A stretch of 64,000 nucleotides of DNA from Cyanidioschyzon merolae (lineage: Eukaryota). Both the position numbers and the translations under genes were made by a program. Positions 1,890 to 52,968 of this stretch are shown here, piece after piece. The notes under the pieces were generated by a model that saw only the letters and a list, made by a program, of their open reading frames with translations, searched no databases and was not told the origin of the DNA. Numbering within the stretch: the first letter of the stretch is position 1; every line of letters begins with the position of its first letter. The stretch is taken from the NCBI GenBank assembly GCA_000091205.1, contig AP006488.2. One strand, 5' to 3'.

Positions 1890-3200
1890 GTTAGATATAT
1901 ATTCTTTACTGAACAGTGCAAGGTGGACTGCATTCCTCGTTCAGGTACGGTTCACCACAGTATTCAGATGGACGAGGAACACTGAAATAAAGAAGCAAGT
2001 ACATGCGATCCGCACCGAAACCAGATATACTCATAGCGTGCTTGCGTTCACTGGTAGAAAAACGACCCGTTGATTACTTTAGGGAAGGGGAAAGCGACGA
2101 TGATACCCATCACCTCTATCTGTTTTTCTCGCCAGCTAATTCGTGTGATCCTGAATGCACTGGCATACAGTCGCGATAAAGTCCTGGTTCATGCACAGCC
2201 GTCTTGTATCGAATTCGCAACGACAGCGTTCCCGGAACGTCCCGATCGGCACGAGGCACAGAGACGTAGCTCTGTCTTTTTCAGACGATGCGACTTTCTT
2301 TGGCCGAAATGGTCGGGGCGTACATGGGTAGTCGCGGGGATGGAGCCAGCTGTATGTATGATCGAACTTGATGAGAGCGAGGACATCATCAACTGTTTGA
2401 GCTGCAGTGGATTCATTTGGCGGCCGCAGTTTCGCTCAGAGGGAAGGCTCGTAGAACAGCACACACTGTACCGAATCATGGAAGAAATTTCCCCTGACGT
2501 CTGACGACGTCGTCCGGTTGTACGGCTTGGTATTTCACCATTCCCCTTGCGTTCGAATGTTTGCTGATTCGATCGGGGAATAGAGCTGCTTTTCATTCCT
2601 CGATATAATCCGTGGTTGAGCCCCGTAGAAAGTGTTTTCTCTATTGTGAGACGTTTTTAATGCTCAACGGGGCGAGTCGCTGAAGCGTTCAGCACACATT
2701 GGTACCTGGCCACATTGCGTCCCTCGTCTGCAAGCCCTTTTTGCTCCGCTTAGCTCCTCATCTAACGGCATAAAGAAGCGCGCCATTTGAAGAAATAAGA
2801 AATCCAAGGGATGAGCTGCGGTGTACACTTCAGAACATCGAGATAGAGAGAAGGCAGCGGAGCGCTTCGCGCGATAGAAAAGTACGGAGAGCTGGCAGAG
2901 CAGCCAATGGTACTGAGTACTCGTGTTCTGGCAATCCTTGCATGGATGAGTTCAACAAGCGGCAATATATGCGAGGAGTTCGTGAAACGAGACTCCAACG
3001 TCACCTTCAGTATCTGACGATATGTAGTGCTGAAGAAGAGAACCGAGGAGCTGACGCGATACAGGTTTATGGGGCAGTCTCTCAGACTTGAAGTGCACAA
3101 GGAGAATCTGAGAACACGATACGAGTCTGCCGATCAAACAAGACTTGGAGGCGTCCTCGGATGGGTATTCATGCACCCCACATGATCGAGGAACTTTTTC
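1890..3200 (+). pseudogene. Degenerate Fanzor/TnpB-like element, copy A, a homolog of the copy at 50.5-51.7 kb. The RuvC-III motif has decayed to KRDSNVTF.
   Basis: Clear DNA and protein homology to the copy at 50530-51700. Both share the block '...FLWPKWSGRTWV...' / '...LFRTKWSGREWV...'. Both share a ~70-bp conserved DNA block (tttcccttgcgttcga...ggggaatagagctgc.tttcattcc at 2540-2610 vs 51160-51230). Both share the RuvC-III codons (agcggcaat.tatgc...ttc.tgaa.cg.gact..aac), here reading SGNICEEFVKRDSNVTF. Broken by stops and frameshifts. Confidence 0.45.
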
Positions 3201-20108: not shown

Positions 20109-22674
20109 ACTTGATTTTTCAACCGCTCTTACGGAGCGTACGATACGAAGTGACGGTGCTCGATAGCCTGCAGCACACGAGCGACGTTAACGTTCGAGAG
20201 CGCAGCGGCTTCATCGCCGCCGTCGTCGACGCCGTCGTCAACGTCGTCGCCAGTTTGCGCTGCTGCATCCGGCGTGTTCGCTCCATAAGATTATCGTCCA
20301 GCGCCCGTGTCATTCGACGGTGGAGCGCTCGGGGCGGGCTGGTGGCGGCTCGCCCTTGAGCAGGTACAGAAATGGGTAAAAAGTTATCTGCTTGTCCCTG
20401 GCGATCTCCTTGCAGGAATCTCTTTTGTACTACCATGTACGTAAATATACAGTTTAGTTCAGTGCCGGTCCGTGGCGACGCGCATGCAGCGCCTGGGGCG
20501 GCACCCGCGCGCGCCTATCGAAGCGCGGGGCACCATTGATTGTTCAGCAGGTGCCCGACTCAAGTCCTTCCTGCTATCTTCATGCGGAGCTAGTGCATTT
20601 CTAGTTCGCTGTAACGCAGCGTATTCGTGCGTGGATTCGGGCGAGAATTTGAATAACGCTCTCCTGGCCACTTATTTTTTATTCGATACCTGGAGCGTTT
20701 CAGCAGAGTGCCCACACTGCATGCGGTGCAGTACCCTCGAAGGTTCGCTCGATACGAAGCCGCTGGATGCTCCAGAAACACAACACTTTTTCCGGATGCT
20801 GGGCGAGACCTTCAATTCTTGGTGCGCAAAGTGCTTGCGCGATTATGGCTCGTAGACTCATGCCATGGTAAGTCGCTTACTGTTCAATGCCTTGCCATCT
20901 GAGGTCCGGTCAGCTTCGCGTGAGGAATCTTTTGCATGCGGCGCTGTTTGGCGGTCTTCTTCTTTACCATTTTGAATCGTGGGACTGTGCTCGTGATTCG
21001 TATATGTCGTCCTGAACGCGTCAATGAGCATCGTACAGAATCAAGTCCTGCACTTGTTGTACGCTTTCGTCGAAGGACCAGGAGCGCAGGGGCCTTTGCT
21101 TGCTCGTCACCGCATCCATCGCGAGCACGCCTACGGGCCGATGCGCGTCTTCCCGTTTCGTCCTGTGCACGATCATAGAAGCAGCGCGGGCGTCCAAGGT
21201 CGGTGAAGGTAGAGAGCGACCTGTCCGAGTATGGTATCAAGAGGCGGACGAATCATCTATAGATCGATGAATGTGAAAATGGCGTTTCGTGTCCATAAAG
21301 ATTTATAGGACTGTGTTGAACAAGCGCTAATAGGCTGGCATGAAGAGCAGCTGAACGCCAATCTAAGCTGCATACTCCTCGACCGATTGGAGTGATGGAA
21401 ACCGACATTGCCCGAGACCCGGACAGGAGAATGTTCGCAAGATAAACATGAAACGCTCTTCGACGAAGGATGACGTGTTCGTCGATGTCATCCGTATGAT
21501 GATTTGGAGGCGAACAGACGATTGCATCGAGGCTAGGGTTCATGTTGTCGTCATGGGAGCATGACCCTTCTTTACGAACAGCGGTTTGAACCCCCATCCC
21601 TGCTTACCCATATACTGGTCTAAAGATTCTCCCTAATAACGTCTCATCGAATGGATCAAACACCCTTCGCTTCTGTAAAAAGCGTTCGCGTTTCGGTACC
21701 TACTCGATCATGTCTACTCCAACGCGCGCAAGCGTCCCAATGAAGCGTACGTTTCCCCTTGTCTGTGCGGGTCCGTCCGTGCCCGTTCGTATCCAAGGCA
21801 CGGAAACTTGACATCCTCTGGCTTTTTTGGTGATATTTTTTGCAGAACGTTTGGAGTGGAATGTATTGACAAGGAGACGATCGTGTTGGTATGGCAGAAT
21901 ATGTTCTGTTTTGAGTACACGACGTTCAGAATGAGAACGATGAGAAGGGTGCTTTATCAAACCCGCTAACCGAAGAATGGCGAACGTCTACAATAATGGC
22001 CGTCTTCCGCAGGCAACGAGTGACACGACCAAGTCTCTTCGCGACGTTTCTCCGATCTTCTGGAACCATTCATATAGTTGAATACTCCCAGAAACACGAA
22101 TGAACATGGGAAGTGGCGTGCCGGTACAGGTGTACCAACATGCACTGTTCTGAATGTCAAGCTTCTCGACCACTGACACCTCCGATGCATACGTTCTGAT
22201 AGGGCATCGGTGGCCGTCAGTGTTCGTCGCCCATATTCTCGAAATCCACTGCCAAGCACCAGAACAACAACATCGCCAACAGGACGTTTCTCGATACCAA
22301 GTATTGTCAAGCGTGCATCCATGGACCGCGTAACGCGTGCAGGCCGCTCCTGAGACGACTCACAGTTCGTACAAGCGCACTCCTGACGCCATCGGAGGTA
22401 CTCAAGGAGACGACCTCGTCACAAGTTAAACTTATAGGACCCGAAAATCTGCGTCAGGGTGTATGACGCTCCGCTGGAACCCGAAGAAGCGTTCTTAAGG
22501 AACGCGCAACGCAAGCCACTCCCGGAAGTCATGCGAGCACTTGACAGACCCAGACTAGGCGGCACGTCGCGCCACCAGCGGTATCGCAACATGAATGCCC
22601 AAGCAGCGTGCGTCAACTTATCCCTGAACAACCAGCCAAAAACGACATTCGGTTGCCTCGGCTTGCAAACATCT

Positions 22675-25611
22675 TTACGCCGACCCGGACTTGTCCTCGA
22701 GGTCGCCTTGGAGCTCAACCATCACCTGAGACTTGCTGCGGCTTTTTCCTCGCTGTGCTTCCCACTCCTCTTGTCGACGACAGAATTCAAGCTGTTGCTC
22801 GCGAGCAAGTTTTTCCAGCTCCTCGATCTCGCGCTGTTCGACTTCGCGACGTTGCCGTACGGCGTCGGCCTGACGAGCGGCAGCAGCCTCCCGCTGCTGC
22901 TGGCGTTGCTGCAGCTCTTCGTGACGGCGCCGGGTGCGCTCCTGCGCTTCAGCCAGCAGCCTACGTGCATATGCCAAGCGATGTAGGCACCAGCTGCTAT
23001 TGGCGTGCGCAGCCTCCGCGGTAACCACTTTGTTTGTCGGACCAGCAAGCGATGGTTGCCATTGTCGAACGACATCGGTAGACACGGAACGTTGCATCTG
23101 ACGGAGGCTCATTTCCATGGCTCGGAAACAACCGCCAGCGCATTCCAGGAGAACCGTAGCTACCTCCGGGTCCGTACCGTGATCAGGACGGCTGAGTCGA
23201 ATGGAAGACTCTTGAGCAAGGGTCAATGACAAGTCGAACCATACCGACAAAGCGGAAGGTTGCAGGTGCAGAGCGCGCTGCAGGGTCTCCATGCAAGCCG
23301 CATACTGGCCAAGGCCGTAGTGTGCAGCTGCGAGTGCCATCAAGGCCCCAGCATCGTACGGGGCGCTTTGAAGACGATCATCAAGAAGACGTATGGCGTT
23401 TCGGAGCGAGGCCACGACAGCGGAACCACGCGACAAGTGCACAGCTATGAGATTCGCCCGAGCACATTCCATGATTTTGGGTTCCGCCGAAGCAACTGCA
23501 CCTAACTGGGCCACCGCACAGAGGGCCTCCTCGGCTTCACTCAAGAGATTCATTTCACGGAAGTAGACTCCGAGAAGTTGCATCGCAGCGACATTATCAT
23601 GCGCGCGCTCTAGAACACCCAATAGCAGGTTTCCCGCAGCTACGAGAAACTTGTGACGGCGGCTCTGATGATGGCGAGCAGTCGCTCGTGCCAAGGTTAC
23701 ATAATACGCAGCAGTGACGAGATCGCAGTAATTTCGAGCTTGGTATCGCGTTTCCAAGTCCTTGCGTAGTTTCTTTCGACGGATAAAGTACTCGAACCAT
23801 GCTTGTGCCTCGTCAACACGGCCACGAGACTGTGCCAAAAAAGCCAAAGCCGTCACAGCTCGCGGATTCGGGAGCACTTGACGATACAGGTCCTCGGCAG
23901 TGTTCAAGTTCCGGTGAAGGTGCTCGGCTAAGACGCCTAGACGCAGCGTGGCATCCTCGTACTCAGGAAATTGTTCATGGATCGTGCGGTAGATGCTCTC
24001 GGAGCGCGTTAGATCGCCCAGTGACTCAAGCAGCCGCCCGAGGTTGTAGCTCAGGGTCAGGTGCCACGGACGCTTGCGGATGAACGCCACCTCAGGGAGC
24101 CAGGTTCGCAACGACAGCCCCTGATCGCCGGTAACCAACTGAAGCGCCCGCTCCAAAGCAATATATGCCTCGTTATACTGACCGAGGCGTACTCTCAAGG
24201 CAGCAATGTTGTTCCAGACAATCGGATCATCCCAGTGTTTCCCCAAGCGCGAGTAAAGCTGCAGCGCGAATGCCGGATCCAGTCGATCCATCAGTTCCGC
24301 GTACACAGCGAGCGCCTCTGCCGGTAGCTGCTCCAAATCCGTGCCCTGCAGTAACTCGAGTGCATGCTGCTGCGCCTGCTCGAGTGCCTTGCGTGACGCC
24401 TGCTCATCCGCTGCTTTCTCCTGGAGAATAACAGCAGAAAGCGCCCGGAGATAGGCATCCAGCCGAGCGGGGAGCGCACGCGACCCCTGTTGGCGAACCC
24501 GCTCTATTTGATCCATTGCTTGATCGAGCGCGTTTCTCCGCAACAGCGAATACGCAAGTGCCAAGCGGGCAACTGCCATCTCAGTCCAATGCTGGATACT
24601 GGTACCGTAGTGCGTTTCAGCCTCAATCCAGTCGCCGCGTCGTTCTCGCCAGCGACCGAGCAGGTATTCGGTACGTGCTGCGGCCCTGTGTGTGGCGGCT
24701 TTCCAGGTGTCCGGTTCAACTGCTCCCAGGAATCGAAACGCACGCTCTCGATGCTCGTGTACGATCGCATTACGGATTCGAAGCTCTTGGGGATAGAGCA
24801 CGAACGCCTCGCGAAGCAGCTCCTCAGCGACAGCACGTGCAGCTGCGGTATCCTTTGCCTCCGACGATGGACCGTGCGTCGGGGCCTCGAGAGCTCGCAA
24901 GCACACCCAGAGGCCCAGTAACGTATCTGGATGTGGATATGCGTCGTCTGCATCCGAATAGTGCATAACGCTCCGATCGATCCGCTCGCACTCCATCGAA
25001 AGACGCCAGCTGAGCACGCGTGTAGCGTCGAGCAACTTGCCGGCGGCAGCGAGCGCGTATGCGTATGAACACCACCATTCCGCTGGTGATGCCTCACCGT
25101 ACATCCAGAGCGCATCCGCATACCAGGCTGCAGCCTGCTGGGCTAGGTGCGGCTCGATGACGCTCCGTTCGAGGAGCACCCGCCCGAGGCCAACTCGAGT
25201 CAAGAGCAGAACAACAGGGCTTGTCTGCGGTTGGACTGCACGAGCGCTCGCTTCGAAGAGTTTCTGTGCCCCCAGGGTGTCCTCCTGAGCGAGGTGAACG
25301 AAGCCTTGCCAGACTGGTGCTAACTGCGCAGCTGCACGGTCGGTTTGAGCGAGTAACGAGGGCTCGAGCTCGACCTGCTCGGCTGCCAGCGTCACACCGA
25401 GTGCAGCCTCCAGCACTGCCGCAGCTTGAGGCCATGTTGAGCGTGCGGACTGCACAAGACGCACGGCTTCGTCCCACTGACGCTCTGCACAGGTGTTCAG
25501 GAACCTGGAACGCCACTGGCTCCAGTTCGTCAACTGCTGTTCGGGCACGGCGACCTCGACGGTGCTGCTGCGTGCCTCGACGCCCGCACGAGGTGCGTTC
25601 ATTAAAGCCAA
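22675..25611 (-). CDS. Large TPR-repeat protein with a C-terminal charged coiled coil, possibly Ctr9/Paf1-complex-like. The ORF opens at TTG; the first ATG is ~25602.
   Basis: A 978-aa ORF with many 34-aa TPR-like units (e.g. WNNIAALRVRLGQYNEAYIALERALQL, ALMALAAAHYGLGQYAACMETLQRALHL). The C-terminus is an R/E/Q-rich heptad region. The Ctr9 assignment is a guess from architecture only. Confidence 0.7.
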   Translation of the reverse strand: MALMNAPRAGVEARSSTVEVAVPEQQLTNWSQWRSRFLNTCAERQWDEAVRLVQSARSTWPQAAAVLEAALGVTLAAEQVELEPSLLAQTDRAAAQLAPVWQGFVHLAQEDTLGAQKLFEASARAVQPQTSPVVLLLTRVGLGRVLLERSVIEPHLAQQAAAWYADALWMYGEASPAEWWCSYAYALAAAGKLLDATRVLSWRLSMECERIDRSVMHYSDADDAYPHPDTLLGLWVCLRALEAPTHGPSSEAKDTAAARAVAEELLREAFVLYPQELRIRNAIVHEHRERAFRFLGAVEPDTWKAATHRAAARTEYLLGRWRERRGDWIEAETHYGTSIQHWTEMAVARLALAYSLLRRNALDQAMDQIERVRQQGSRALPARLDAYLRALSAVILQEKAADEQASRKALEQAQQHALELLQGTDLEQLPAEALAVYAELMDRLDPAFALQLYSRLGKHWDDPIVWNNIAALRVRLGQYNEAYIALERALQLVTGDQGLSLRTWLPEVAFIRKRPWHLTLSYNLGRLLESLGDLTRSESIYRTIHEQFPEYEDATLRLGVLAEHLHRNLNTAEDLYRQVLPNPRAVTALAFLAQSRGRVDEAQAWFEYFIRRKKLRKDLETRYQARNYCDLVTAAYYVTLARATARHHQSRRHKFLVAAGNLLLGVLERAHDNVAAMQLLGVYFREMNLLSEAEEALCAVAQLGAVASAEPKIMECARANLIAVHLSRGSAVVASLRNAIRLLDDRLQSAPYDAGALMALAAAHYGLGQYAACMETLQRALHLQPSALSVWFDLSLTLAQESSIRLSRPDHGTDPEVATVLLECAGGCFRAMEMSLRQMQRSVSTDVVRQWQPSLAGPTNKVVTAEAAHANSSWCLHRLAYARRLLAEAQERTRRRHEELQQRQQQREAAAARQADAVRQRREVEQREIEELEKLAREQQLEFCRRQEEWEAQRGKSRSKSQVMVELQGDLEDKSGSA

Positions 25612-25873
25612 AGACTAGACAAGACTTAAAGAACCTCCTGCAAAGAGCGGAATCACAGACTCGAGAACCGGAACAGAGTACCAAACAGCTGTGAAGGAAC
25701 AACCCAGGAGTGTCCACGGAAACGCCTTTATAAGGACGTGGAGCACACACCACCACCGCCGTTCTAAGTCGAACGACGTCGGGCGTGTACAGTAGTGGCG
25801 AGAAACCCGCCTTGGACAAGAAATCTTCCACTGCGGTGTAGACGCCTTCCAGCCCTTTGAGAACGGCCACCCA

Positions 25874-26314
25874 CTACTGCTTCCAAATTTCTATCATATA
25901 GTTAAACATGAAGAGGTGTCCAATGAAGTTCTCTCTTGTCGACTCTGGAGGTCTTTTCTCCAGCACCGCACATCTCCTTATATTGATTGCGGCATTAAAG
26001 TCTCGGTTCACAAACTCCATACGTTTCTTGCAATTGATTGTACTTCCTAATGCAAGTAGCCCTCGAACTTTCGCCCTCCTTTCCATTTGCTCGTCTGTCA
26101 GCGGTCCGTACTTTGCGATTTCCTCAGGGCTCCGTTGGCACTTTTCCATCTCGACCCTATGAAGTATACAGTCCAGTCCATGGTGTATATACGATGTTCG
26201 AAACTCATCTACAGGTATTGTAACAAAACGCCTTGCCCACTCCTTGTACGTTCTTGTCGTTGGAGCTGGCGTAGTCCATTTTTTGGGTCTTCTAGCGCCC
26301 TGCTCCGTACGCTT
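25874..26314 (-). CDS. Fanzor-like nuclease, C-terminal segment. It carries a TS motif, a Cys/His cluster and the RuvC-III catalytic motif.
   Basis: The open frame reads ...TIPVDEFRTSYIHHGLDCILHRVEMEKCQRSPEEIAKYGPLTDEQMERRAKVRGLLALGSTINCKKRMEFVNRDFNAAINIRRC.... The '(N/D)RDxNAAxNI' element is the hallmark RuvC-III of TnpB/Fanzor/Cas12. The frame is offset from the middle segment by a ~90-100-nt putative intron (gtttgc...tag). Confidence 0.6.
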   Translation of the reverse strand, partial: KRTEQGARRPKKWTTPAPTTRTYKEWARRFVTIPVDEFRTSYIHHGLDCILHRVEMEKCQRSPEEIAKYGPLTDEQMERRAKVRGLLALGSTINCKKRMEFVNRDFNAAINIRRCAVLEKRPPESTRENFIGHLFMFNYMIEIWKQ

Positions 26315-26401
26315 CTACTAGCCTCTGATTTTCATCCTCCTTCAGGGCACTCAACTGATTGAAAAAATTCGCGAACGCCCGCTGCTTCCCACAATACAAA
26401 T

Positions 26402-27187
26402 TCATTCGCAAACGAGCCCACGGGGGTTGGTATACTTCTCCCACAGCGCATCCCAATGCGCCATGCGAACTTTCATGAACTCCCGAAAAGCTTCAAAGTC
26501 CGCCCCTCGGCTCGTCACCTCGCTCAAAGCTTCCAGGTGATCCTTCGTTCCTGAATTCCATGTAACGATTTTCTTCCTCGCATTCATGGTGCCCGATTCC
26601 CGATTGTATCTCGCTCTCGAGAACCTCAAAAGACGCATGTCTTTCTGACGTAAGTTACCATCAGTCCCATCTTCCGCACACTTTGGTACAGAGATGGTTA
26701 TGATATTTGTATTCCCAGGGTCCGCGGCAACGACAAAGTCGTTATCTTCCACTTTCTGGGTCGCAGGATCCGCCTCCTTCTTTTCTTCATCCTTCGCCGC
26801 GTCAAAGACAAAGTCGTTATCCTGCACTTTCTGGGTCGCAGGACCAGCCTCCTCCTCATCTTCATTCTTCGCCGCGTCAAACATAAAGTCGTTATCCTCC
26901 ACCTCCTGCGTCGCAGGACCAGCCTCCTCTTTGTTTTCTTCATGCATCGCCGTGCCAACGACAAGGTCGTTATCTCGCACCTCCTGCGTCGCAGGACCCG
27001 CCTTCTTCTCATCTTCATGGTTCGCCGAAGGCGGAACTGGCCGATCTTTCTTCAACCGCCGATAGTGTATACATAAGGCCACTCCATCGGTTTCGATCAC
27101 CCCCGTGAATACCTTTTGTTTGCTCACGTTGAGACGTTTGAAATCGAAGATACTCCTCCAGTACGTCTCCCGTTTTTCACCGGAGAA
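26402..27187 (-). CDS. Fanzor-like nuclease, middle segment. It carries a 24-aa x4 acidic tandem repeat and then a RuvC-I-like motif.
   Basis: '...[21 protein letters not shown]...' resembles the D-P-G RuvC-I motif of Fanzor (I/V-D-P-G). It is preceded by four copies of 'EEAGPATQ(E/K)V(E/Q)DNDF(M/V)FDAAK(N/D)E(D/E)'. Confidence 0.55.
26715..27010. repeat. In-frame 72-bp (24-codon) tandem repeat x4 inside the Fanzor-like coding region.
   Basis: The DNA unit '...aaagtcgttatcctgcactttctgggtcgcaggaccagcctcctcctcatcttcattcttcgccgcgtcaaagaca...' repeats 4 times. Antisense ORFs 26694-27065 (+) and 26698-27018 (-) are by-products. Confidence 0.8.
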
Positions 27188-27437
27188 TTACTCCCTGCTG
27201 ACATCGAACTCGGGACTGATCTCCCTCATGATGCCATGAAGGACTGCGGAGTCGGTAGTCACAAAATGTGACTTGATCTTGCACACTGGAACCACGTCGA
27301 AGCGCTTACCCATTCGGAAAGCCTTCCGTCTCTCCTACTCTTCATTTGTCTCTTCACTCAGCTTCATCTCTGCCTTGCGTTCGAACTCTCGCTCCAAAAA
27401 CACAAAATAGCGCACGATGAGGCGATAGTATCTTTCC

Positions 27438-28334
27438 TTACCTTTTTTTCAACACTGATATCTTTTCTGTTGGATTCGCCAGCCCCAGTACCGCACGGTG
27501 CTCTTGTATAACCGCGCGGATGACGGAGTCCTCATTTGTGCTCCTGCGTGACGTCTTCTTGTCGACGAATTCGACCTCACCTTCATGCTTGCGATCTTTC
27601 GTGATGCCATTGATAATCGCAAATTTTCCATTGCGAGACAGACCCGGGTAGAGTGCAAACACGGCGCGTATCATGAAACGTTCGAGGTTCGTTGTCAAAC
27701 GGTTCTTCAGGTTCGTAATGTACTTCATTGCCCCGTATGTGTAAATATCCTGGTCACCCTTGTATCGAGTACCATTGAAGCTGTAAAAGGGATGTTTTCC
27801 GTGGAGGGCATGCACCCGCTCATTTTCCATCCGCGCTTCCTTTGTACCAAGCATCAGCTGACGAATAAACTTCTTATCGAAAAACTCGTCTGGAATCTCG
27901 ACCGTTTCCATGTGCGTCACGTCGCGATACATCTCTCTCACCAAATGCATCAGTCCTGACGACGCCTTGACGATACTCTTGGAGTATGACGCAACACGTT
28001 TTTCGATAGCGTCTCGCAACTTTTCCCTGTAGGGATCCTTGATATGTCCAAGAAGAAAGGTTTTCACCACCATCTCGTTGTACAGCCGTCTTTCTTGCCG
28101 CCTTCGACGTAGGGCCTCTCCCTTTAGGTCCTTCTTCGCTTCCTTGTCTTCTGGACTCGGCACAGTTTTCGTTTTTTTCTGGTAGTCGGCGACCCTCGGC
28201 CTCCAGGATCGTCGACTTGCTTTTTCATAACTTTCCTTTTTTAGTTTTTTTTTGAAAAAGAAAGCTCCTGGAACGCTTCTGTTATATACTGCGAAAAAAC
28301 AATTGAATACACATGTTTGAGGTTTGAGACTCAA
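27438..28334 (-). CDS. Fanzor-like nuclease, N-terminal segment (298 aa). It ends at an AG|GTAAGG splice donor.
   Basis: Uninterrupted basic/charged N-terminal region. The ORF's TAA stop lies inside 'aaaaaaaGGTAAGG' (+strand ccttacc at 27436-27442), a consensus 5' splice donor. Confidence 0.55.
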   Translation of the reverse strand: MSLKPQTCVFNCFFAVYNRSVPGAFFFKKKLKKESYEKASRRSWRPRVADYQKKTKTVPSPEDKEAKKDLKGEALRRRRQERRLYNEMVVKTFLLGHIKDPYREKLRDAIEKRVASYSKSIVKASSGLMHLVREMYRDVTHMETVEIPDEFFDKKFIRQLMLGTKEARMENERVHALHGKHPFYSFNGTRYKGDQDIYTYGAMKYITNLKNRLTTNLERFMIRAVFALYPGLSRNGKFAIINGITKDRKHEGEVEFVDKKTSRRSTNEDSVIRAVIQEHRAVLGLANPTEKISVLKKR

Positions 28335-28711
28335 ATGAACTGAAAACTATACTTGGCTATGAAGTTAACGAAAATACAACTTTTACATTAGAGCTACATG
28401 CTAGATATCAAGATCACGTTTTCCTTCGACGGCGGCATTTTTTTCATAAACAAAACGTTTCCTTTGGCCAGCGTTCTCCGACTATGCGCGTTTCTCTTTT
28501 CTTACTTTTTTGTGTTTTCCAATGTGCGGTGAAGTATCCATCAAACAGCCTACTTCCAAGTTCCATTACCTATACTTCTTCTAGGATATTCTGGTCGTTT
28601 CATACGTCCTATCGGGTGTGCCTCGTACCTGCCTTTCTGTATTCGCCTTTGCACCTTAAATGCTGGAGCAGATACCTCATAGAGACAGAACGGCGTTGCC
28701 GTACCACAGAG

Positions 28712-28830
28712 GGCGTCGGCTCAAGGCGTGGTTCACCCGACGTAGAATCGGGTGTCGTTGTCTGTTTGTGCTCGGACAGTCTGCGGATGCAGGCCTGTCT
28801 TCGCTGTACGACACGCTGGAGACACTTGGC
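28712..28830. repeat. Dispersed repeat, copy 1 of a pair with 33806-33925. About 75% identical and in the same orientation.
   Basis: 'gtgctcggacagtctgcggatgcaggcctgtcttcgctgtacgacacg' aligns to 'gtgctcgcccagtctgcgtatgcagacctgccttcgcggcacgacggg' and the flanking ~60 bp. Both copies translate on the minus strand to similar peptides (RRQACIRRLSEH.../RRQVCIRRLGEH...). Confidence 0.6.
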
Positions 28831-30451
28831 TGTTAGGATAAATCGAGGGAGTCGCCTCCCTCCTTTGTGATCATGCATGGAATGCGTTGTCGTCGGTTGG
28901 CAATGCGGATTTGTGCTTGACACCCACCACAGTGGGTAGGCGCAGAAAGCGCACTGGCCCCGTGTTCGCATCCGATCCGCTGGACCTTCCGCCCAGAAGG
29001 TAGCATGTGAGTTTGTTCGCCATTAATGAGCGCTGAGGCTCCGTTAGCGGACCATCAGTTGCCAGTGCTGCACTCAAAGTGAGTGTCCGGCCTTCGCCTA
29101 TCACGGCGATGTCCAGCTGCTGCTGTCCTTCAAGGAGCTCGCTGCGCTCCTGTTTCCAGTGCGGGCACTATAAGCCTAAATATGTCAGCGTCTCGGGGGT
29201 CTGGTCTCCAGAGCAGGGACAGTGTGATTCCCAGTGCGATTCCGGTGTTTCCGTACGGCTTAGAGACGGTGCTAGTCAGAAACCACCAACGCGGATTTCG
29301 GCGATCCACTGGGTACCTCGAGCAAGTCCCGGGAATTCCAGCACCCACTACCAGTACTTGCATGTGTATGCTAGGGTGTAGTTCCGGATAGGGTCAAGCC
29401 GGCGTTACTTGCGCGACTGGTTCCATGTCTACATTCCCGTACTGTTGTTTGGACCGTTCGCTTCAGGCGACGGGAGAATTCTATATTTCTGGGGAACGAT
29501 TGGGTAGCGTGTTTTCGCGTAAGAGGCGCTTCAGCCAAATCTGCGCTGATTTCATCCAAGTGTTCTAGCGGTGCGTTGGGGTCTGCATGAAAATCCGACT
29601 GAACCAGGTGTACATGGTGGGCCCTTTGGCCCACACACGTGCCTGGCAGCCTGCTGCTATCGCTTCTATTGAGGGTATTTGGAGTTCAAGTCCGAGTGCC
29701 AGGCAGGTTGGTTGCTCTGCTCTGCATTGAGCATCCAACAGCAACAACGAGTCGCATTGCCCTGTTGGCGGCTATCTGCAGACGTGAGATATTTGTGTGG
29801 TTCATGCCGCACCATTCAGCACCCCAGGTCGCAGGCTGGATGATACACATCCTTAGCGCCCTGGTACGAATTGCTAAGGGGATAGAGGGGTCGGATGGGA
29901 ATGGGCGTGCGATCGCTGTACGTCTATGCATCTTGGCGATCATCTCGTCGATGTGTGCCTTTTCGTCGAGCGTCGGCGTGAGACAGACCCTGCAGATAGC
30001 GATATTTTTCCACGATTGGAATTTCCTGATTCTGCAACCGCCACGAGCGATTGCGAATGCTCTGCGAGTCTCCATGGATGAGCATGACGCCGCACTTCGA
30101 TGCTCCTACGTTCATCTTCCAGCGATCGACCCAGGTGCTGACTTGTTCCATGCTAGCCGCAAGCGTTTCCGGGGCGGATGCCAACAGCACGACATCGTCC
30201 GCAAGTAGAAGGCCTGCGAGGCGGTTCGTATGTGAGGGCTCCTCATCGGGCATCTCCACAGTCTATCCACGGCACCTCAAGCCCGTATTGTCTGCAGTTG
30301 TTCAGCAGATCGTTGATGAAGATGTTGAAAAGGAGCGGGGATGCGGGGTCGCTCTGTCGCAGTCCACGGCGGATTCTTATACGAGGGATTCATGAGCCGT
30401 CGCCCAGTCGGATGCGCATCCATGAGTCTGCATAGAGCGCCCGGAAGAATG

Positions 30452-31480
30452 CTAAGCACTTTTCGGAGACTCCGGCGCGTTCCATCTTGAGAAATAGAGC
30501 CTCATGCGGGACCGTGTCAAAGGCCTTTTGAAAGTCGATGAAGCATACATGAGGATCGGTGCGACCTCAACACTCCTACATACATCAGGGATGTATGCTT
30601 CTTCGAACATGCGTTGGATGAGCTCCAGAAGGCGTTTGCCCAGGATTCTGTCAGATTCATCTGGTATCGATGGTGTCCCTGTTGTCTCGTCTTTTGGGGT
30701 CGCCAGTTTCATCCACTCCGTCGCGATACCGTCGATGCCAGGTGTTTTGCGGTTGCTTGAGCATAGCAGGGTCCGAACAGATTCAGGCCAGAAGATTGGG
30801 TCGTTCCATACCGGTACCGGTTCGAGGCGCGGTAGTTCTGCAGCATATTGGTGCCGATAGATTCGGTTTTGGCAGTGCCCAGTTGCGTCTTCATGCAGCT
30901 CTGTCCCGTGGTCTGTGCAGGCCTCATTCACTGAGGCACTCTCCGTCCTCAGCGCTTCCTCATAAACGATTGGTGTGAGCCCCAGGCACTTTTTTGGTGG
31001 GTCAAGTCTCGATCGGATGTAGCGCCAGGTCTCATCTTCGTTGGTGCTCTCTAGCATAGATTTCGCCAGGGCGGCGATTTTGCGGCTTCGATCCTCTCGT
31101 TTGTCTTCTCTGGAAAGTTTCTTCTCTCTTTTGATAGCTTCCTCATGTTGTGCCTGTAGCGCCGGTAGCGCTGCCTTCGCTTCCATGTCTCCGGCGTTGG
31201 CGCGTATGGCGGTGCGGTTGACGATCTTATAGAGTCGGCGGTATTCATCAATCCGAGTTTTGGTACGTCGTTTCAGGAACTGAGGTTTGCAACTGTTGTG
31301 TTCTGGTCCAAGCAGTCCCAGCTCTCTGGCGGTCTTCTGATTCCCAGCTACAAACTCGCGTGCCAATTGGTCTAAAGATTTGCATGCACGGCTTTTCGGA
31401 TCTACAGCGCTGTGAGTAGGTGACTGGGTTTGGCGACGGCTTTCTTGAGTTCCTGCTCGGGTGCTCTTTCGGGGGATCAC
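30452..31480 (-). CDS. LINE ORF2 reverse-transcriptase N-terminal fragment.
   Basis: KTPGIDGI (RT domain 1) and ...RLLELIQRMFEEAYIPDVCRS... The RT continues in the shifted ORFs 29924-30259 and 29686-30075. Confidence 0.6.
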   Translation of the reverse strand: MIPRKSTRAGTQESRRQTQSPTHSAVDPKSRACKSLDQLAREFVAGNQKTARELGLLGPEHNSCKPQFLKRRTKTRIDEYRRLYKIVNRTAIRANAGDMEAKAALPALQAQHEEAIKREKKLSREDKREDRSRKIAALAKSMLESTNEDETWRYIRSRLDPPKKCLGLTPIVYEEALRTESASVNEACTDHGTELHEDATGHCQNRIYRHQYAAELPRLEPVPVWNDPIFWPESVRTLLCSSNRKTPGIDGIATEWMKLATPKDETTGTPSIPDESDRILGKRLLELIQRMFEEAYIPDVCRSVEVAPILMYASSTFKRPLTRSRMRLYFSRWNAPESPKSA

Positions 31481-31511
31481 TCATGATGGGCTCGTTTGGG
31501 AGTTCTTCTTT

Positions 31512-32441
31512 CTATTCTTCTGTTTTTTTCTTGCTGGTCTTTTTCTTCTTCGGGCTCTTTCCTGAGCTGCATTCTCTGCTTATTTTGCATCTAGGTGGAT
31601 CATGAGGTTTCTGTGCCTCCTTCTCCGTATCCCGTTGGGTCTCTTTCGCTATTGTAGATCCCTCTATTGTTGTCTCTTCTTCGTTAATGTACTGATAATT
31701 CGTTATCTTTTCTCGGAAGGCTGCAAGTGACTTGTTGGTTAGCATCCGGGCTTGGTATGTTGAGGGTGCACTTGCTGGTAACCCTTGCTGTGCGCTCTGA
31801 GTCGTGTCGGCTGCTGGTTCAGCATTTTGGTTCCTCGGGCGCGGGTACCATCTGCAATGGATGGGCCAGTGATCTGAGGCATCCCAAATTCGGTCAACGG
31901 CGGTTTGTAGGAGTGCCGGGTCGCATCGGTCGCTTAAGATGTGGTCTATCGATGAGCGAAGCAAACGTTGGTCGGTAATGCGGTGCCACGTCAGGGGTGA
32001 ACCTCTACACGGATTCACCGACAGGAATCCGCATCTCATTCGTTGTAGGTGTTGCCTAAGGTGGCCCGCCGACATGTTAAAATCTCCCATAATTATCATC
32101 GGTTCCTGATTCCGTGTGCGGCGTTTCAATCGCTGGATGTTGGAGGCCAACTCTTTGAGTGCCTGTTGGCGCATCTCTCCGGCGTGTGGTATATAAATGG
32201 AGCCCACAAGCCAAGGTGCAGGCTGACCTGGAATTGTAACACTCACAAAGACCATCCATGGAGACGGGTTGCCGACCGCATAGCAAGTGAGGCGTCGATC
32301 GACAGTGAGCGCCACACCACGTGTGCGTAACGAAGTTGGCTTCTCCGTAGGGTCTACGTATGTTGGTTCAAAGGTGTTGTCGCCTGGGGTATGCAGACGA
32401 TAATACGTCTTTGTGTTCTCTGAGTGTAGTGTCTCCTGCAA
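31512..32441 (-). CDS. LINE ORF2 endonuclease (APE/EEP) domain fragment.
   Basis: GDFNM, IDHIL and SDHWP motifs are typical of L1/RTE-type AP-endonuclease domains. Confidence 0.65.
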   Translation of the reverse strand: MQETLHSENTKTYYRLHTPGDNTFEPTYVDPTEKPTSLRTRGVALTVDRRLTCYAVGNPSPWMVFVSVTIPGQPAPWLVGSIYIPHAGEMRQQALKELASNIQRLKRRTRNQEPMIIMGDFNMSAGHLRQHLQRMRCGFLSVNPCRGSPLTWHRITDQRLLRSSIDHILSDRCDPALLQTAVDRIWDASDHWPIHCRWYPRPRNQNAEPAADTTQSAQQGLPASAPSTYQARMLTNKSLAAFREKITNYQYINEEETTIEGSTIAKETQRDTEKEAQKPHDPPRCKISRECSSGKSPKKKKTSKKKTEE

Positions 32442-33805
32442 TGCTAGGATATGGACGTCTCAGCGTTCCAGGAAGTACCTTACGTCATCTAGTATCGAGG
32501 CTGTCCCACAAATATTCCATGATGCGGAACCTATCGAGTCGTAGCGCATAAGGGAATAGGAATAGCGCTGCGGTACTCGAGAGATACGTTGTCGATTGAG
32601 ATGCACCCTCCACGGCGTGTGAGAACGCACATGCCACCATTGCCTCCTGCATTCCAGTCGTTCAGTGAGTGTCTGCCGCAGCGCTAGCGTAGAATCAGAT
32701 GTACATTAGTCAAAGTCGATTCGAATGCGACCTTTATCTTGCCGGACGTGTGAAGCTACCTTCAACCACTGGGGATACGCTATGAACCACCCTGTCAGCG
32801 GCTTCGTATCCGCTCCCCAAATACATAGGCGGGCAAGTCGCTTGTTCCAGCTTCTACCGCGAACATACTGCCAGCTGTCTTCCGAAGTATCCGCCGAGAT
32901 TGTTTCCAAAGTTGAGGTAGGTACCCAAGGTAGGAGGTAAAACTGAGCCCGATTTCGAGGATGGATCTAGGATTCGCGCCGGAACCCGCAGCGTTGTTTC
33001 GAGAGCAGCGGATAACTGCTCAGCATTCTCGTCAACTTTTTCTGCTGCTGCTGCCTCCGCCCTTCCGTTCCTTGCGGTCAAGGTTCCTGTTGTGGGCTTC
33101 CTTCCTCGTCGCCCGAGCACCCCGTGTTTACCCACTTTCAGAGCTTCTCCGGAAAAACTAGACCTCTTAGGCGGGCGTGGTGTGTGGGTCTTTAAGATAG
33201 TTGTTGTTTATTAAATAGTTTGCGACTAGTTTGTTTTTTTCGTCTCCTATCAATGCGGCAGATGCCGAGATCATTCTACGGGAAAAAATCCGAAGCGGCT
33301 ATTCAGTCGTTTTATGGTCTACCGCGGGTTCGCCTCGCCGTTTCGTGTGCGGAAACAGACCAGCAGCGGCATCACTCGTGTGCGCCTGCTTGGTATCGCT
33401 CCGAACGGCTTCAAAGCGTCGACTAGAAAAGTCGCGCATGCGTCTGGTAGCGCGTCTGGCATGCTAGTCCAGTGCCCACAAACGATGATCGTTTCCCTGC
33501 ACGCTGTCCGAGCATTGGACGCGATGGCTTCAATACCGCCTGACTCCAGCCATCCTTTCTTGATCGGCGGAACGTTTACACTGACCAGAGATACATGCCA
33601 CTGTGCAACTGGATATCTGCATCCGGGAAAGCGTCCGTGATAACTCGCGCTACGTCAAAGTTCCACGACGCGTACTTATGCTCGGAGGGTGTGGTCTATG
33701 CATAGGTTCCGCAGCACACCGAGTCTGCTGTGAGCGCTCGCCAAGACGCCTGTAGCGCCGGCGCTGATGCAGCACACTGACAGAAAAGCTTTGCAAGAAC
33801 GTTGA

Positions 33806-33925
33806 GCGTGTCGGCTCGAGGCGCCGTTCATCGATCGCAGGGTCGTGTCTCGTCGTCCGTGGGTGCTCGCCCAGTCTGCGTATGCAGACCTGCCTTCGCG
33901 GCACGACGGGTTTGAGAAACCCCGC
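33806..33925. repeat. Dispersed repeat, copy 2 of the pair with 28712-28830.
   Basis: See copy 1. The spacing is ~5.1 kb, bracketing the LINE. Confidence 0.6.
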
Positions 33926-34358
33926 GATGACGAAGAATCCAAGAGGCCGAGTCTCAACTTTGCTCGTTATCCACCAGTGAGGTGGTGTACGAATCGCTGG
34001 ACTCGCGTGCGCATCTAGTTCGTGGAACCATTCGCCTAGAACGTTGCACACAACGACTGGCCCAGAGATCCAGAGTAATTCCAGCGGATTCACTCCAGAG
34101 CGATTCTTTCTCGCACAAGAACGGGCGTCTAGAATCCGATTCCGCGGATGTGCAACTGCTGCTTGTCATCAGAAAAGAGATCAGGATCCTTCACAGATGC
34201 ACCCCGTGCGCCAGCTCTACCAGCATCATATTCATCTTTTGCTTGTGAATCGAGGCTACCACTCCCGATCGAGATGCATCAGCGGATACGAGCAGGAAAC
34301 TGCCCCAAGGCGTACATCGTTGCAAGTGAACGCTGCCCATACGAGTGAGGCCATAGCG

Positions 34359-34859
34359 CTAACCGGAGAAGTAGCGCTTTGCGAGATTTTTAGCCACTTC
34401 GTGGAACCGCTTGCTCGTAATCGGTGCATCCTCTTCTTGGAATGGGTTGCACACCACATGAGGCACATAGGCCTCGTACACGGCGTGCAGAAACGCCCGT
34501 ACGTTCCGTGACGCATCGTCGCTAGCCCCATGCACTAATACGAAGCGCGTGGCTGCGTTCGGCGTGAGCTGAACCGATGCAGACCAGTCACGGAATCGGA
34601 AGATATGCTTCAAACTTCGGGCCGAGGTTAACCAATATTTCTCCTCGATATGGTCCAGAGCGCTGTAGGCAACGAACTGCAGGAGAACCTGGATGCTCGG
34701 TATGAAATGATGGGGCTCGAAGTCTCCACGCTCTGCCGGACTCGAGAGCTCTGAGCTCGTTCTCCAGTCCAGCTCGGAGAGCGATGCCGGATACAAGAGA
34801 TCGTAGAGAACACGGTCATCTCGTCCGACGATCACAAAATAATAGAGCCGCTCGCTCAT
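34359..34859 (-). CDS. TRAPPC2: TRAPP complex subunit 2 (sedlin/Trs20).
   Basis: 'MSERLYYFVIVGRDDRVLYDL...FIPSIQVLLQFVAYSALDHIEEKYWL...RFVLVHGASDDASRNVRAFLHAVYEAYVPHVVCNPFQ' matches the sedlin fold signature (MSGSFYFVIVGHHDNPVFE...FIAHAALDLVDENMWL...FIMLHD...NPFY). ATG start confirmed at 34857-34859. Confidence 0.85.
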   Translation of the reverse strand: MSERLYYFVIVGRDDRVLYDLLYPASLSELDWRTSSELSSPAERGDFEPHHFIPSIQVLLQFVAYSALDHIEEKYWLTSARSLKHIFRFRDWSASVQLTPNAATRFVLVHGASDDASRNVRAFLHAVYEAYVPHVVCNPFQEEDAPITSKRFHEVAKNLAKRYFSG

Positions 34860-35289
34860 GGTACGACGTTATCGATCTTCCCCGCCTGCCGCGGTTGCCT
34901 CTAAAACCAAGATGATGCCGGGTCCGCAACACCGCCAAAAGACGCGGCAGTTCCCCAAAACCGGGATCAATCAGCGCTCGGGGAGTAGCGCCCCGCCGAA
35001 AGCACCGAACCCTGCTCTAGGTTCAAGAGCAAATCGCAAACAACCCGTCTACGTCTTTTCAAACGTTTGCCGAACCAGGGCAACGAAAGATACGTCAAGT
35101 GCTGATCAGGCTCCAACGACGGTCGTCGTAACAGCAACGATAGCAGTCGTAATGATATCAGCAGCAGGAACAGTAACAATAGTAGTAGCCTGAACCTGTA
35201 CCCAGTGCCACTAGTGCCAGTCAACGGAGCCAGGACAGCTGAACTGCACTTTCCCAAATTCAGGTGCCCTGCTTCATACCCTGCCTTTG

Positions 35290-35576
35290 AAATAAGACAC
35301 AAACTCAGCTCTAAACCCTGAAACAGAAATAACAGCAGTTTTACTGAACGTTCCCACAGCTCTTGTTTCCTGACAAGTTGAGGCTGCTGCTAGGCGTCAC
35401 ACCTCCGAATTGTACAGGCACGTGTGCGCTGAAACAAGACACAAACTCAGCTCTAAACCCTGAAACACAAATAACAGCAGTTTTACTGAACGTTCCCACA
35501 GCTCTTGTTTCCTGACAAGTTGAGGCTGCTGGTAGGCGTCACACCTCCGAATTGTACAGGCACGTGTGCGCTCTTA
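35290..35576. repeat. 2 x ~143-bp tandem duplication in the 5' region of the 35.7-36.6 kb gene.
   Basis: 'aa(g/c)acacaaactcagctctaaaccctgaaaca(g/c)aaataacagcagttttactgaacgttcccacagctcttgtttcctgacaagttgaggctgctg(c/g)taggcgtcacacctccgaattgtacaggcacgtgtgcgct' occurs twice head-to-tail. Confidence 0.85.
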
Positions 35577-50529: not shown

Positions 50530-51700
50530 TTTAATGGTCAGTACAAGAAGGACTGCATTCTCTCTTCAGCATGGTCACACCACAGTACTCAGATGGGTAC
50601 GGAAGACTGCGGGAAAAAGAGTATGCGCTTGGCCCCATAAACCGATATTATGAAAGACTGGCTGCGGTCAATGGTCGAAATCGACCCGTTAATGACCTTA
50701 CGGAATGCAAAACGAGGTGGTGGCCGACATGTACGTTTCTGTTTCTCAACAGATTGTTCATGTTGTCTTGAAAACATATGAATACAATCGCGAAAGGAGC
50801 GTCAGATTTCACCCGAGGTCATCTACCGACATCGAAACGACAGCGTTCCTGGAACAAAGGGATCAATATGGAGCACAGGGACGTCGATTTGTTTTTCTCA
50901 GACGATGGGACTTGTTTCGGACGAAATGGTCAGGGCGCGAATGGGTACTCGCGGAGCAGGGAGCCCGTTGTATGTACAATCGAACTAGAAGGTAGCTAAG
51001 GCATCATCATCTGTTCTAGATACAGTTGGTTCACGTAGCGGCCGCAGTATCGTTCGTACAGGAGGCTCATCCAACAGCATCAACGACTTTGTCGAAGTAC
51101 TCGAACTTCTTTCCTTGACGTCCAGAAACGCACTGCTTTGGATGCCGTGGCATCTCATCGTTTCCCTTGCGTTCGAGCTTTTGCCGATTCTATCGGGGTA
51201 GAGCTGCGTTTCATTCCTTCGTACGCTTTGTGGTCCAATCGCATAAAAAGGAGTGTTGCCTGTCGTGAAACGTAGTGATCGCTCCACTGGACGAATCGCT
51301 GAAGCGTTCATCACACGGGGACATATTAAGGCACATTTCGTGTTCCTTGAGCCAGTCCTGCTCGCTCCGGGAACGTCCTCACCACAACCTATAAAAAACT
51401 GCGTTCGTTTTCAAAGAATTAAGGTAGAGCCACGATGCATAATTCAGAAGTTCGACATGGAGAGAAGGCAGCGGAACGCTTCGGCGATAGCAGAGGACGC
51501 AGAGCTGACACAGCACCAAATGGTTCAGAGGGCGCGAGTTCTACGACACTTTGCACTGGTGAGTACAAACAGCGGCAATAAATGCATGGACTTCATGAAC
51601 CGCGACTTTAACGCTGCTATCAAGAACAGACGATTTGATAAGATGAAGACGAGACCCGTGGAGCAGACGCGAGCCAACCTTGTAGGGCAGCCTCTCAGTC
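50530..51700 (+). pseudogene. Degenerate Fanzor/TnpB-like element, copy B. It retains RuvC-III 'NRDFNAAIKNRR' but the zinc-finger Cys have changed to Arg.
   Basis: '...PRCIIQKFDMERRQRNASAIAEDAELTQHQMVQRARVLRHFALVSTNSGNKCMDFMNRDFNAAIKNRRF' aligns residue by residue with copy C 'LDCILHRVEMEKCQRSPEEIAKYGPLTDEQMERRAKVRGLLALGSTINCKKRMEFVNRDFNAAINIRRC'. The upstream part is homologous to copy A at DNA level. Interrupted by stops. Confidence 0.5.
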
Positions 51701-52149
51701 TCGTAGTGTGCATGCAGATACTGAAACCGATAGCAGGCGGCCAGTCGACAAGCGCCCGGAGGAGGCGCCCGCGGATGGGCATCCATTTACCCTGCACGGT
51801 CGTGAACGTATTTTTGTTTCACTCAGGATTGCAAGGTGGAAGATCGAGGCATCGAACTGGAAATCCCGAACGTGTGACTGCTGCTGCTATACCCGGCCAC
51901 ATCGAGCGATGGAAACACCAGAATCGTTCACTGCTTGTCCGGCAGAATCGTTCGCAGTGTGTAAATTCGAGGATCTGCGTCTGTGCTGGACTGTTGAACC
52001 GTACCATACCAGTGCCATGATCCAGGCGAGTATCCAAATGGACTCCCTCACGGTTACTGAAGTTAACCTTATCGAAAATCTCCAGCGCTTCCGAGCAATG
52101 CCCCTACTGGGTACCAAACGAGTGCTTGGAAACGTTGTTCGATAAACAG

Positions 52150-52320
52150 ATGCTACAAGTTCCAGAAGCGCGAAATGCTTCCGGATGTTGATCGAGGCGT
52201 TCAGGGCGCGGTGTGCAAAGTGTGGCGCGCATCGGGTCCTGGTCGACTCGTACCGTGGCAAGTCTGTCACCTTCGATTGCTTTGCCGTTCGGCGTTCGGT
52301 CAGCTTGCCGTTCACCACCT
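52150..52320 (-). other. Second RuvC-III-like relic, copy E ('CAPHFAHRALNASINIRK'), on the opposite strand just 3' of copy B.
   Basis: The minus-strand translation at ~52178-52216 gives the NAxINIR(K/R) core; the catalytic Asp is replaced. Low-confidence remnant. Confidence 0.25.
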
Positions 52321-52968
52321 CGTGCGACAGTCTCTGGCTCAGCTGCTTCTTCTGTATCTAATTCAGGGTGCATCTGAGCTCGGTATGTGTGAATAAAGTA
52401 CAGGACGCGTGAAAGAAAACCGGTTTGAATCGATTCCTGCATCCGTGACTCATGATCACCATTCGTATCAACCGTACAGAAGCTTTCCATCTTGTGGCTA
52501 CTTTGATAGTCTTTTTTGGGAACGTATGGAGTAGTATGGATTGACGGAGAGTCAATCGCACAGAACGAGTTTTGCCACCTTCTGCTTTGGGTGCACGACA
52601 TTCAGAATACGGAGCACGAGAACTGCGCTTTATCTAATGATTGAACGCAGAGTGACTGGCGGGCAGAAATCAAGCCGGTTTGCGCAACCTAGCAGTGATA
52701 GCATGCAGACGTTCTGCTCGACATTCCTGCAATCTACAGCATACATTCCTTTTCTTGCATACCTGCAAGAAAAACAAACAGGGCGAGCTGATATAGGTAT
52801 TCCAGAATTCATTACCCTGAGTATCGCAACGGACCTAGAGGCGCGGGCACCCACTTCCGGGCCAAGCCATCTTTCGATGACGCCGCTCTGTGGTATGCGC
52901 AACATTCGCCGCAAACGAACATGAAATGCACACCGCTCCGTCGATATCGTACCCGAGGGCATGTACTC

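Follow-up and report, generated by a model that had tools for sequence, protein, structure and literature searches.

Introduction

In the alga Cyanidioschyzon merolae 10D, a stretch of 64,000 nucleotides (contig AP006488.2, assembly GCA_000091205.1; hereafter the window, meaning this whole stretch) carries a degenerate non-long-terminal-repeat (non-LTR) retrotransposon, or long interspersed element (LINE), beside a Fanzor nuclease gene, in an intergenic region flanked by a TPR gene and a sedlin gene. Two diverged direct repeats seem at first sight to bracket the LINE. This raises the question of whether the repeats are the ends of a larger mobile unit carrying the Fanzor gene, two copies of a short dispersed repeat, or something else. 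According to our analysis, the "direct repeats" are homologous segments of the 3′ untranslated region (UTR) of the LINE and of an older tail fragment, and the apparent bracketing is coincidental to element structure. The island is an ordinary nested-transposon graveyard of known families, requiring no new biology. In full, with a probability of about 0.85, it consists of a copy of the Fanzor element CMe-1A, a 4.8-kb LINE at position 703 of that copy and an older LINE-tail fragment, the repeats being LINE 3′-UTR segments. The features concerned are as follows (ORF, open reading frame; APE, apurinic/apyrimidinic endonuclease; RT, reverse transcriptase).

25750-28437, minus strand: Fanzor1 unit of the CMe-1A family, a pseudogene, positions ~703-3145 of the 3169-bp consensus
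25750-25873, minus strand: conserved non-coding 3′ (right) end of the Fanzor unit with terminal hairpin CGTCGTTCGACTTAGAACGGCG, kept in 16 paralogues
26695-27027, minus strand: four 75-78-bp tandem repeats within the Fanzor ORF, acidic units (repeat finder, self-blast)
28438-33240, minus strand: degenerate, near full-length, single-ORF APE+RT non-LTR retrotransposon (LINE), 4803 bp, delimited by colinear copies elsewhere
28438-28870, minus strand: LINE 3′ UTR, with terminal A7 at 28438-28444 and the left repeat at 28709-28825
28682-28701, inside the LINE 3′ UTR: its best-conserved core, GAACGGCGTTGCCGTACCAC on the plus strand
28874-30904, minus strand: LINE ORF2 C-terminal (Cys/His motif) region and RT domain, frameshifted (tblastn, Pfam RVT_1)
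31512-32567, minus strand: LINE APE endonuclease domain, interrupted close to its start by an in-frame stop (Pfam, translation, tblastn)
32568-33240, minus strand: LINE 5′ UTR, the element beginning AAAAAAACAAACTAGTCGCAAAC (aligned 5′ ends of copies)
33241-33559: spacer separating the older tail fragment from the LINE 5′ end
~33560-33945, minus strand: older, separate, 5′-truncated LINE-tail fragment with a degenerate A-run end near 33560, holding the right repeat at 33804-33920

The left repeat is part of the LINE 3′ UTR

A blastn comparison of the window with itself paired 28709-28825 and 33804-33920, which share an orientation and are 74.4% identical over 117 nt (E=4e-15). It returned just these two copies; an exact-seed repeat finder did not pick the pair up. 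Hence, the first-pass annotation was right that the repeats are real, similarly oriented and about 75% identical, and that their length and divergence are too great for target-site duplications. Rfam gave zero matches at E<=1 over 25000-35500, and ARAGORN found no tRNA genes within the window; the repeat is therefore neither a known RNA gene nor a tRNA-derived short interspersed element (SINE). Four host proteins of the window are identical to C. merolae 10D entries (BAM79421, BAM79423, BAM79428 and BAM79429). The same locus is present at 97-99% identity in contigs of several JGI and ENA metagenomes.

The APE ORF (31512-32441, minus strand) matched Pfam Exo_endo_phos (7e-9) and Exo_endo_phos_2 (1e-5). 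The RT matched RVT_1 at 6.8e-5 on the window fragment and at 4.6e-28 when rebuilt from paralogues, and the domains of the LINE ORF follow the order APE, linker, RT, with the APE N-terminal to the RT. Together with the CMe-1A homology of its neighbor, these matches bear out the earlier identification of a degenerate APE+RT LINE beside a Fanzor gene. Compared by tblastn with an ORF2 rebuilt from better copies, the window LINE has undergone at least six frame changes, lacks ~66 aa of the RT and is therefore old. It had been described beforehand as old and broken into at least four frames; the age holds, and the element is more broken than that. The closest named relatives are entries called "retroelement, alive [Cyanidioschyzon merolae strain 10D]" (84-87% aa identity), while the nearest named relatives outside Cyanidiales are 25-42% identical and none has a clade name.

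Other copies were sought by scanning public metagenome contigs with the 20-mer core (28682-28701), which yielded 95 stretches corresponding, after merging of orthologous contigs, to ~25 distinct loci, most of them from metagenome samples carrying this alga's contigs. The left repeat proved to be part of a longer colinear unit, many copies running from 28437-28440 upward into the RT. Copy 3′ ends stop at 28437-28440 in more than 20 distinct loci, with the terminal sequence ATGAAAAAAA followed by unrelated flanks, and all colinear copies finish at GTTTTGTCAATGAAAAAAA and an A-run, with unrelated DNA beyond. At the other extremity, LINE 5′ ends were found at 33236-33240 in three loci (L066, L092, L097), again with unrelated upstream flanks. 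The LINE thus extends well past the 29.4-32.5 kb initially assigned to it. The ORF2 C-terminus was placed by tblastn at 28874-29460 and the end of ORF2 lies near 28871. Because the LINE occupies 28438-33240 and its ORF2 ends there, the left repeat falls in the 3′ UTR, 270 bp inside the element and not at its terminus.

The LINE-tail family moves by retrotransposition as LINEs generally do. Its copies begin at variable points, at the equivalents of 28999-30548 (~29000, 29168-29193, 29210, 29298 and further into the RT), and these differing upstream ends give the 5′-truncation pattern typical of a LINE. Target-site duplications of 12-23 bp flank other copies (L018 ACCTGCATCCGCGC, L080 GCAATCCGGCAACGAGCGCACGC, L025 CTCGTATACCAT; also L086), and many copies are solitary. 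At the level of the family, an A-rich 3′ terminus, variable 5′ truncation, target-site duplications and absence of terminal repeats are thus all found. Several loci hold head-plus-tail derivatives with internal deletions (28732|30662 with 31708|32483; 28999|32592; 31708|32483 alone), and ~12 loci hold a discrete SINE-like short form of ~290 bp whose 5′ end is CCTCGAGCCGACGCCC. The short form resembles a SINE in its LINE-derived tail, its discrete 5′ end and its target-site duplications, and no RNA polymerase III (pol III) head of the tRNA, 5S or 7SL type was found in it. The earlier suggestion of "two copies of a SINE-like repeat" therefore came near the truth, the family having 290-bp derivatives of this kind, although the repeats themselves are really LINE 3′-UTR tails.

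Some further observations concern these tails. The tail core GTGGTACGGCAACGCCGTTC contains a 5-bp hairpin, and the 11-mer AACGCCGTTCT is common to the core (28682-28701) and to the reverse complement of the Fanzor 3′ hairpin (25752-25775). Sites flanking LINE-tail 3′ ends (L006/L087, L080, L065/L024, L018) start with AATCG or AATCC, are GCGC-rich and resemble the Fanzor 5′ edge AGAATCGCGCT.AGTGAGCGCAC, which hints at a target preference of the LINE. In a related strain (JGI 3300050748, L006:2996-4330 onward), the sedlin-side flank leads into an internally deleted LINE, beyond which cyclophilin, RPL18A and mitochondrial carrier genes replace the Fanzor and the TPR gene; this layout suggests that LINE copies mediated a rearrangement.

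The right repeat belongs to an older tail fragment

The right repeat lies ~560 bp beyond the LINE 5′ end, in a tail fragment that starts ~320 bp beyond it, and the intervening spacer (33241-33559) gave no significant match to LINE or Fanzor sequence. Over 33719-33940 the fragment is 68-77% identical to other LINE tails. The left copy is 80-90% identical to tails of the active lineage, whereas the right copy reaches only 68-77% with all tails, and this gap in identity indicates that the two are of different ages. The right fragment is therefore separate from the LINE and not a terminus of any unit that includes it.

A single retroelement extending to ~33.95 kb, with the two repeats as its terminal repeats (LTR-like, Penelope-type pseudo-LTRs or TART-like UTR repeats), would explain why they share an orientation and flank an RT-coding body at a distance of 5.1 kb. 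It is extremely improbable, since the three independent LINE copies ending at 33236-33240 have unrelated upstream flanks, two further copies join Fanzor sequence at LINE position 8, the two repeats differ in age, and the left one is internal to its element. Nor is the proposal that the repeats are termini of a Fanzor-carrying composite supported at this locus: LINE copies end at 28438 and at 33236-33240, and the Fanzor lies outside the bracket. A recurring 28.7-33.9-kb unit bounded by both repeats was reproduced at no locus examined. A Fanzor 5′ stub following the right repeat, which would have given a second "tail then Fanzor" junction, was considered and dropped after shuffle tests (z<=2.3).

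The Fanzor unit is a CMe-1A copy without its 5′ module

The first-pass annotation had included the Fanzor gene in an island at 28340-34000; the gene occupies ~25750-28437 on the minus strand, almost wholly outside that interval. Comparison was made by blastn with the CMe-1A consensus (Bao and Jurka, 2013, supplementary file 2). Consensus positions 703-2196 correspond to 28434-26950 at 84% identity and positions 2117-3137 to 26801-25785 at 87%, and paralogues end at 25744-25791 and at 28432-28438. The 734-aa CMe-1 protein matched the window by tblastn at 67-78% identity in frames -1/-3/-1/-1/-3. The ORF is not intact, being split into at least four frame segments by at least three frameshifts, and the DPGNTN and NRDFNAAINI motifs are still legible in the ORFs at 26402-27127 and 25874-26149. 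With Pfam, the Fanzor ORFs and the CMe-1 consensus gave nothing except a weak Cas12f1-like_TNB match. The tandem unit listed above is single in the consensus, fourfold in the window and about four- or fivefold in L103, its number varying among paralogues.

The consensus 5′ 702 bp, which hold the module TE-N2_CMe, are lacking from the window unit, and the A7 tail of the LINE is joined straight to consensus position 703. The match beginning at 703 and the abutting A-tail therefore identify the window Fanzor as a 5′-truncated or interrupted member of its family.

At the 3′ end of the Fanzor unit, hand-drawn stems were 91% paired, compared with 26-68% when the partners were slid, and they covary weakly, three pairs having changed on both sides; RNAalifold found no compensatory changes in this end. 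By analogy with TnpB and Fanzor biology, it is presumed to be an omegaRNA scaffold. Just past the terminal hairpin (25720-25750; L102, L103, L056/L079, L007, L084), unrelated loci often have similar, G/T-rich DNA (GTGGTGGTGTGTGC, TTGTTGTTGGTGTG), which may reflect a preference for certain targets or a guide segment that was inherited.

The Fanzor 5′ boundary borders LINE sequence elsewhere

Bao and Jurka (2013; Mob DNA 4:12, PMC3627910) described ~150 copies of the ~3.2-kb Fanzor1 element CMe-1A in C. merolae. Its 5′ 635 bp form a separate repeat, TE-N2_CMe, with ~70 copies; terminal inverted repeats and target-site duplications were not found, and its class was given as unknown (PMC3627910). 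Weaker colinear homology extends the window repeats beyond 117 nt into this module: consensus positions 84-282 align with 28549-28752 in the LINE 3′ UTR and positions 10-256 with 33571-33821 in the right fragment, both opposite to the Fanzor gene orientation. In a local alignment, positions 6-534 matched the window plus strand at 28450-29003 with 64% identity and a score of 139, the shuffle maximum being 17. On the strength of these alignments of 6-534 to the antisense 3′ UTR, the TE-N2_CMe module is the reverse complement of the 3′ UTR of this LINE family. That its 5′ end might derive from the LINE 5′ head, making it a head-plus-tail derivative that would unite two junction classes, was tried and abandoned (P=0.05 and 0.7).

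From locus to locus, the Fanzor core begins at the same 5′ boundary (consensus ~648-671) and finishes at the same hairpin-bearing 3′ end. All of the ~13 intact 5′ boundaries examined (~13/13) adjoin LINE-derived sequence at the same few nucleotides and in both orientations. The six boundaries (6/6) from loci fetched by Fanzor protein only (L102-L105, L107) border LINE sequence as well, and these are free of repeat-motif bias because they were fetched through Fanzor proteins alone. Co-occurrence of the repeat with Fanzor copies elsewhere, raised by the first-pass annotation, was thus found, the LINE-tail family lying at the 5′ boundary of other copies. The same annotation had also envisaged a high-copy, dispersed repeat unlinked to either element. 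High-copy and dispersed it is; it is nevertheless linked, being part of the LINE and recurring at Fanzor 5′ boundaries. The following junction types were distinguished.

Antisense LINE-B tail (canonical CMe-1A): L049/77, L084, L078, L073, L043, L016, L103, L107A
Antisense LINE from position 3538: L102, beside an intact 752-aa Fanzor
Antisense 5′ end of a nearly full LINE: L104, L105
Sense LINE tail ending in an A-run: L007, L093, L081, L107B
Inside the Fanzor unit, always beside a LINE A-run: at 703 (window) and at 2934 (L075, L092, L079)

The composites of Fanzor and LINE behave as units at more than one locus. Indeed, L104 and L105, two separate loci, share 3.7 kb at 95.7% identity, a similarity that breaks off exactly at the Fanzor 3′ end, and a CMe-1A derivative with a deletion of 494-1075, which removes the Fanzor 5′ boundary, is present at two loci. 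No literature statement linking CMe-1A or TE-N2_CMe to a LINE was found. The LINE-tail identity of the module and the invariant Fanzor-LINE junction thus appear to be new.

Two loci show further arrangements of these boundaries. At an SMC-adjacent locus, one contig carries an antisense LINE followed by a Fanzor (L104:3350-5898), and the contig of another strain (L106:1464-6362) has a head-to-head pair of Fanzors, cut short at consensus 1038 and 780, which resembles a fold-back junction; from this comparison, Fanzor 5′ regions look rearrangement-prone. In L107:5767-11410, a single TE-N2 module lies between two Fanzor cores whose 5′ ends both face it. One strand carries a full CMe-1A, and the second core, 78% identical to the first, starts 23 bp past the tail A-run on the other strand.

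Origin of the island and of the Fanzor-LINE association

In the nested arrangement preferred here, two independent target-primed reverse-transcription events in the same orientation would have given the LINE and the older tail fragment. The younger LINE would have inserted into the 5′ end of a CMe-1A copy already in place, whose 5′ module was thereby removed or displaced. Several points weigh against this sequence of events. Upstream of the LINE, no trace of the displaced Fanzor 5′ part could be detected. In the flanks of the window LINE, the best target-site duplication match is not significant (P=0.1), and its target-primed insertion is for that reason deduced from other copies. With the exception of the window, the comparison copies come from metagenome contigs of related strains and do not amount to a full genome census; most were fetched via the tail motif, so that the counts are biased.

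The alternative in which the window LINE and Fanzor arose in one event, as a chimeric retrocopy, either by read-through of a LINE transcript into Fanzor or by an RT that copied Fanzor RNA from its 3′ end and switched to the 3′ end of LINE RNA, would in its broader form have CMe-1A Fanzors mobilized by the LINE RT. Junctions of the form LINE, A-run, Fanzor position x to 3′ end do recur, with a constant Fanzor 3′ end, variable Fanzor 5′ extents (x = 660-671, 703, 2934) and variable LINE lengths, and the upstream Fanzor remainder is absent at 2/2 testable loci with x=2934. Read on the opposite strand, canonical CMe-1A terminates in a LINE tail whose A-run is variable, L104 and L105 form a young composite pair, and the 494-1075 deletion derivative still occurs at its two loci without the Fanzor 5′ boundary. 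The junctions fall exactly at RNA-like ends, and internal deletions are tolerated, as mobilization by RT would allow. However, no A-run follows the Fanzor 3′ end, and no convincing target-site duplications are visible around whole CMe-1A composites, the copies being old. In addition, LINE copies are cut short at many different points, yet truncation within the Fanzor body was seen in 0/7 full CMe-1A copies, and the precise Fanzor 3′ terminus fits a DNA end better than a transcription start. A one-event origin of the window pair is judged unlikely.

Scarcity of neutral insertion space in a compact genome could also bring the two elements together without any specific relation. The window is indeed packed with long intron-poor ORFs separated by short intergenic gaps, LINE copies also lie within Fanzor bodies at other positions and orientations (for instance L059 at consensus 1525, antisense), and there are the many solitary LINE-tail copies. 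We regard this explanation as very unlikely, given that every intact Fanzor 5′ boundary counted above borders LINE sequence at the same few nucleotides in at least four configurations, that the boundaries sampled without the repeat motif do so too, and that the published consensus (~150 copies, PMC3627910) itself carries the LINE-tail module. We infer that the adjacency is not due to chance and that the outer 5′ edge of the Fanzor would be a recurrent junction with LINE sequence.

As for its cause, the Fanzor 5′ edge might be a preferred landing site of the LINE, A-rich or nicked, a reading to which we give somewhat less than an even chance. It accounts for the variable LINE truncation points and for both orientations, and it does not account for the recurrence of composites as units. 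That Fanzor and LINE sequences are mobilized together is rather doubtful. In the same tentative vein, CMe-1A-type Fanzors might be coupled to a non-LTR retrotransposon structurally and possibly mechanistically, the nuclease gene being spread by LINE reverse transcription. The converse may also apply, LINEs exploiting nicks made at Fanzor ends.

Other observations in the window

Four Fanzor-like C-terminal fragments, at 2777-3110 (plus), 51436-51765 (plus), 52130-52441 (minus) and 20939-21130 (minus), are 31-46% identical to CMe-1 in aa and presumably derive from other, more distant Fanzor families; no LINE-tail copy adjoins them within the window. At 35288-35571, between the sedlin and DUF3110 genes, a 142-bp unit is tandemly duplicated in perfect register with 98% identity. 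The metagenome contigs L001, L002 and L004 align as single-unit, and the copy number seems polymorphic.

Comparison with known systems

The tail family is in line with the general picture of LINE/SINE partnerships with a common 3′ tail. It likewise shows an A-run tail, variable 5′ truncation and target-site duplications of 12-23 bp, and it likewise includes discrete short non-autonomous units (290 bp; ~635 bp) and head-plus-tail deletion derivatives. True SINEs differ in their pol III-type head, which was not detected in the short units here; the latter may be 3′-UTR-only derivatives. The Fanzor-LINE composites resemble, again in general terms, L1 3′ transductions and template-switch chimeras of the U6/L1 type, in which one partner is joined precisely by its 3′ end and the other at a variable position, and in which the composites propagate. 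They differ from these in having no poly(A) after the Fanzor end, no target-site duplications of the composite, and both orders and orientations.

Within the same genome, the window unit is 84-87% identical in nt to CMe-1A over 703-3137 and 67-78% in aa (PMC3627910). It departs from the consensus in lacking TE-N2 and in having at least three frameshifts, extra 75-bp units and a sense LINE A-tail at 703. Bao and Jurka (2013) do not describe TE-N2 as an antisense LINE 3′ UTR, an identity that comes from the present alignments. The carrier of this ~150-copy C. merolae Fanzor family has been of "class unknown" since 2013, and the repeat flagged in the window leads to its 5′ module being recognized as a LINE 3′ tail. 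The spread of the CMe-1A Fanzor without a transposase thereby becomes a testable question, in a transformable alga with a finished genome.

TnpB-only IS200/IS605 derivatives and Fanzors with a 3′ omegaRNA (Saito et al., 2023, PMC10432273) resemble CMe-1A in that they carry a gene for a RuvC nuclease and, 3′ to it, a conserved and structured non-coding stretch that finishes in a hairpin; their right end is precise and borders unique DNA. Unlike those elements, CMe-1A has neither a transposase nor inverted repeats, and its left end is always bordered by LINE sequence. Saito et al. (2023) make no mention of LINE or other retrotransposons, and Jiang et al. (2023) reported only Gypsy, ERV, hAT and other transposons within 10 kb of these nucleases. 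If true, coupling to a LINE would extend the known carriers of Fanzors to non-LTR retrotransposons.

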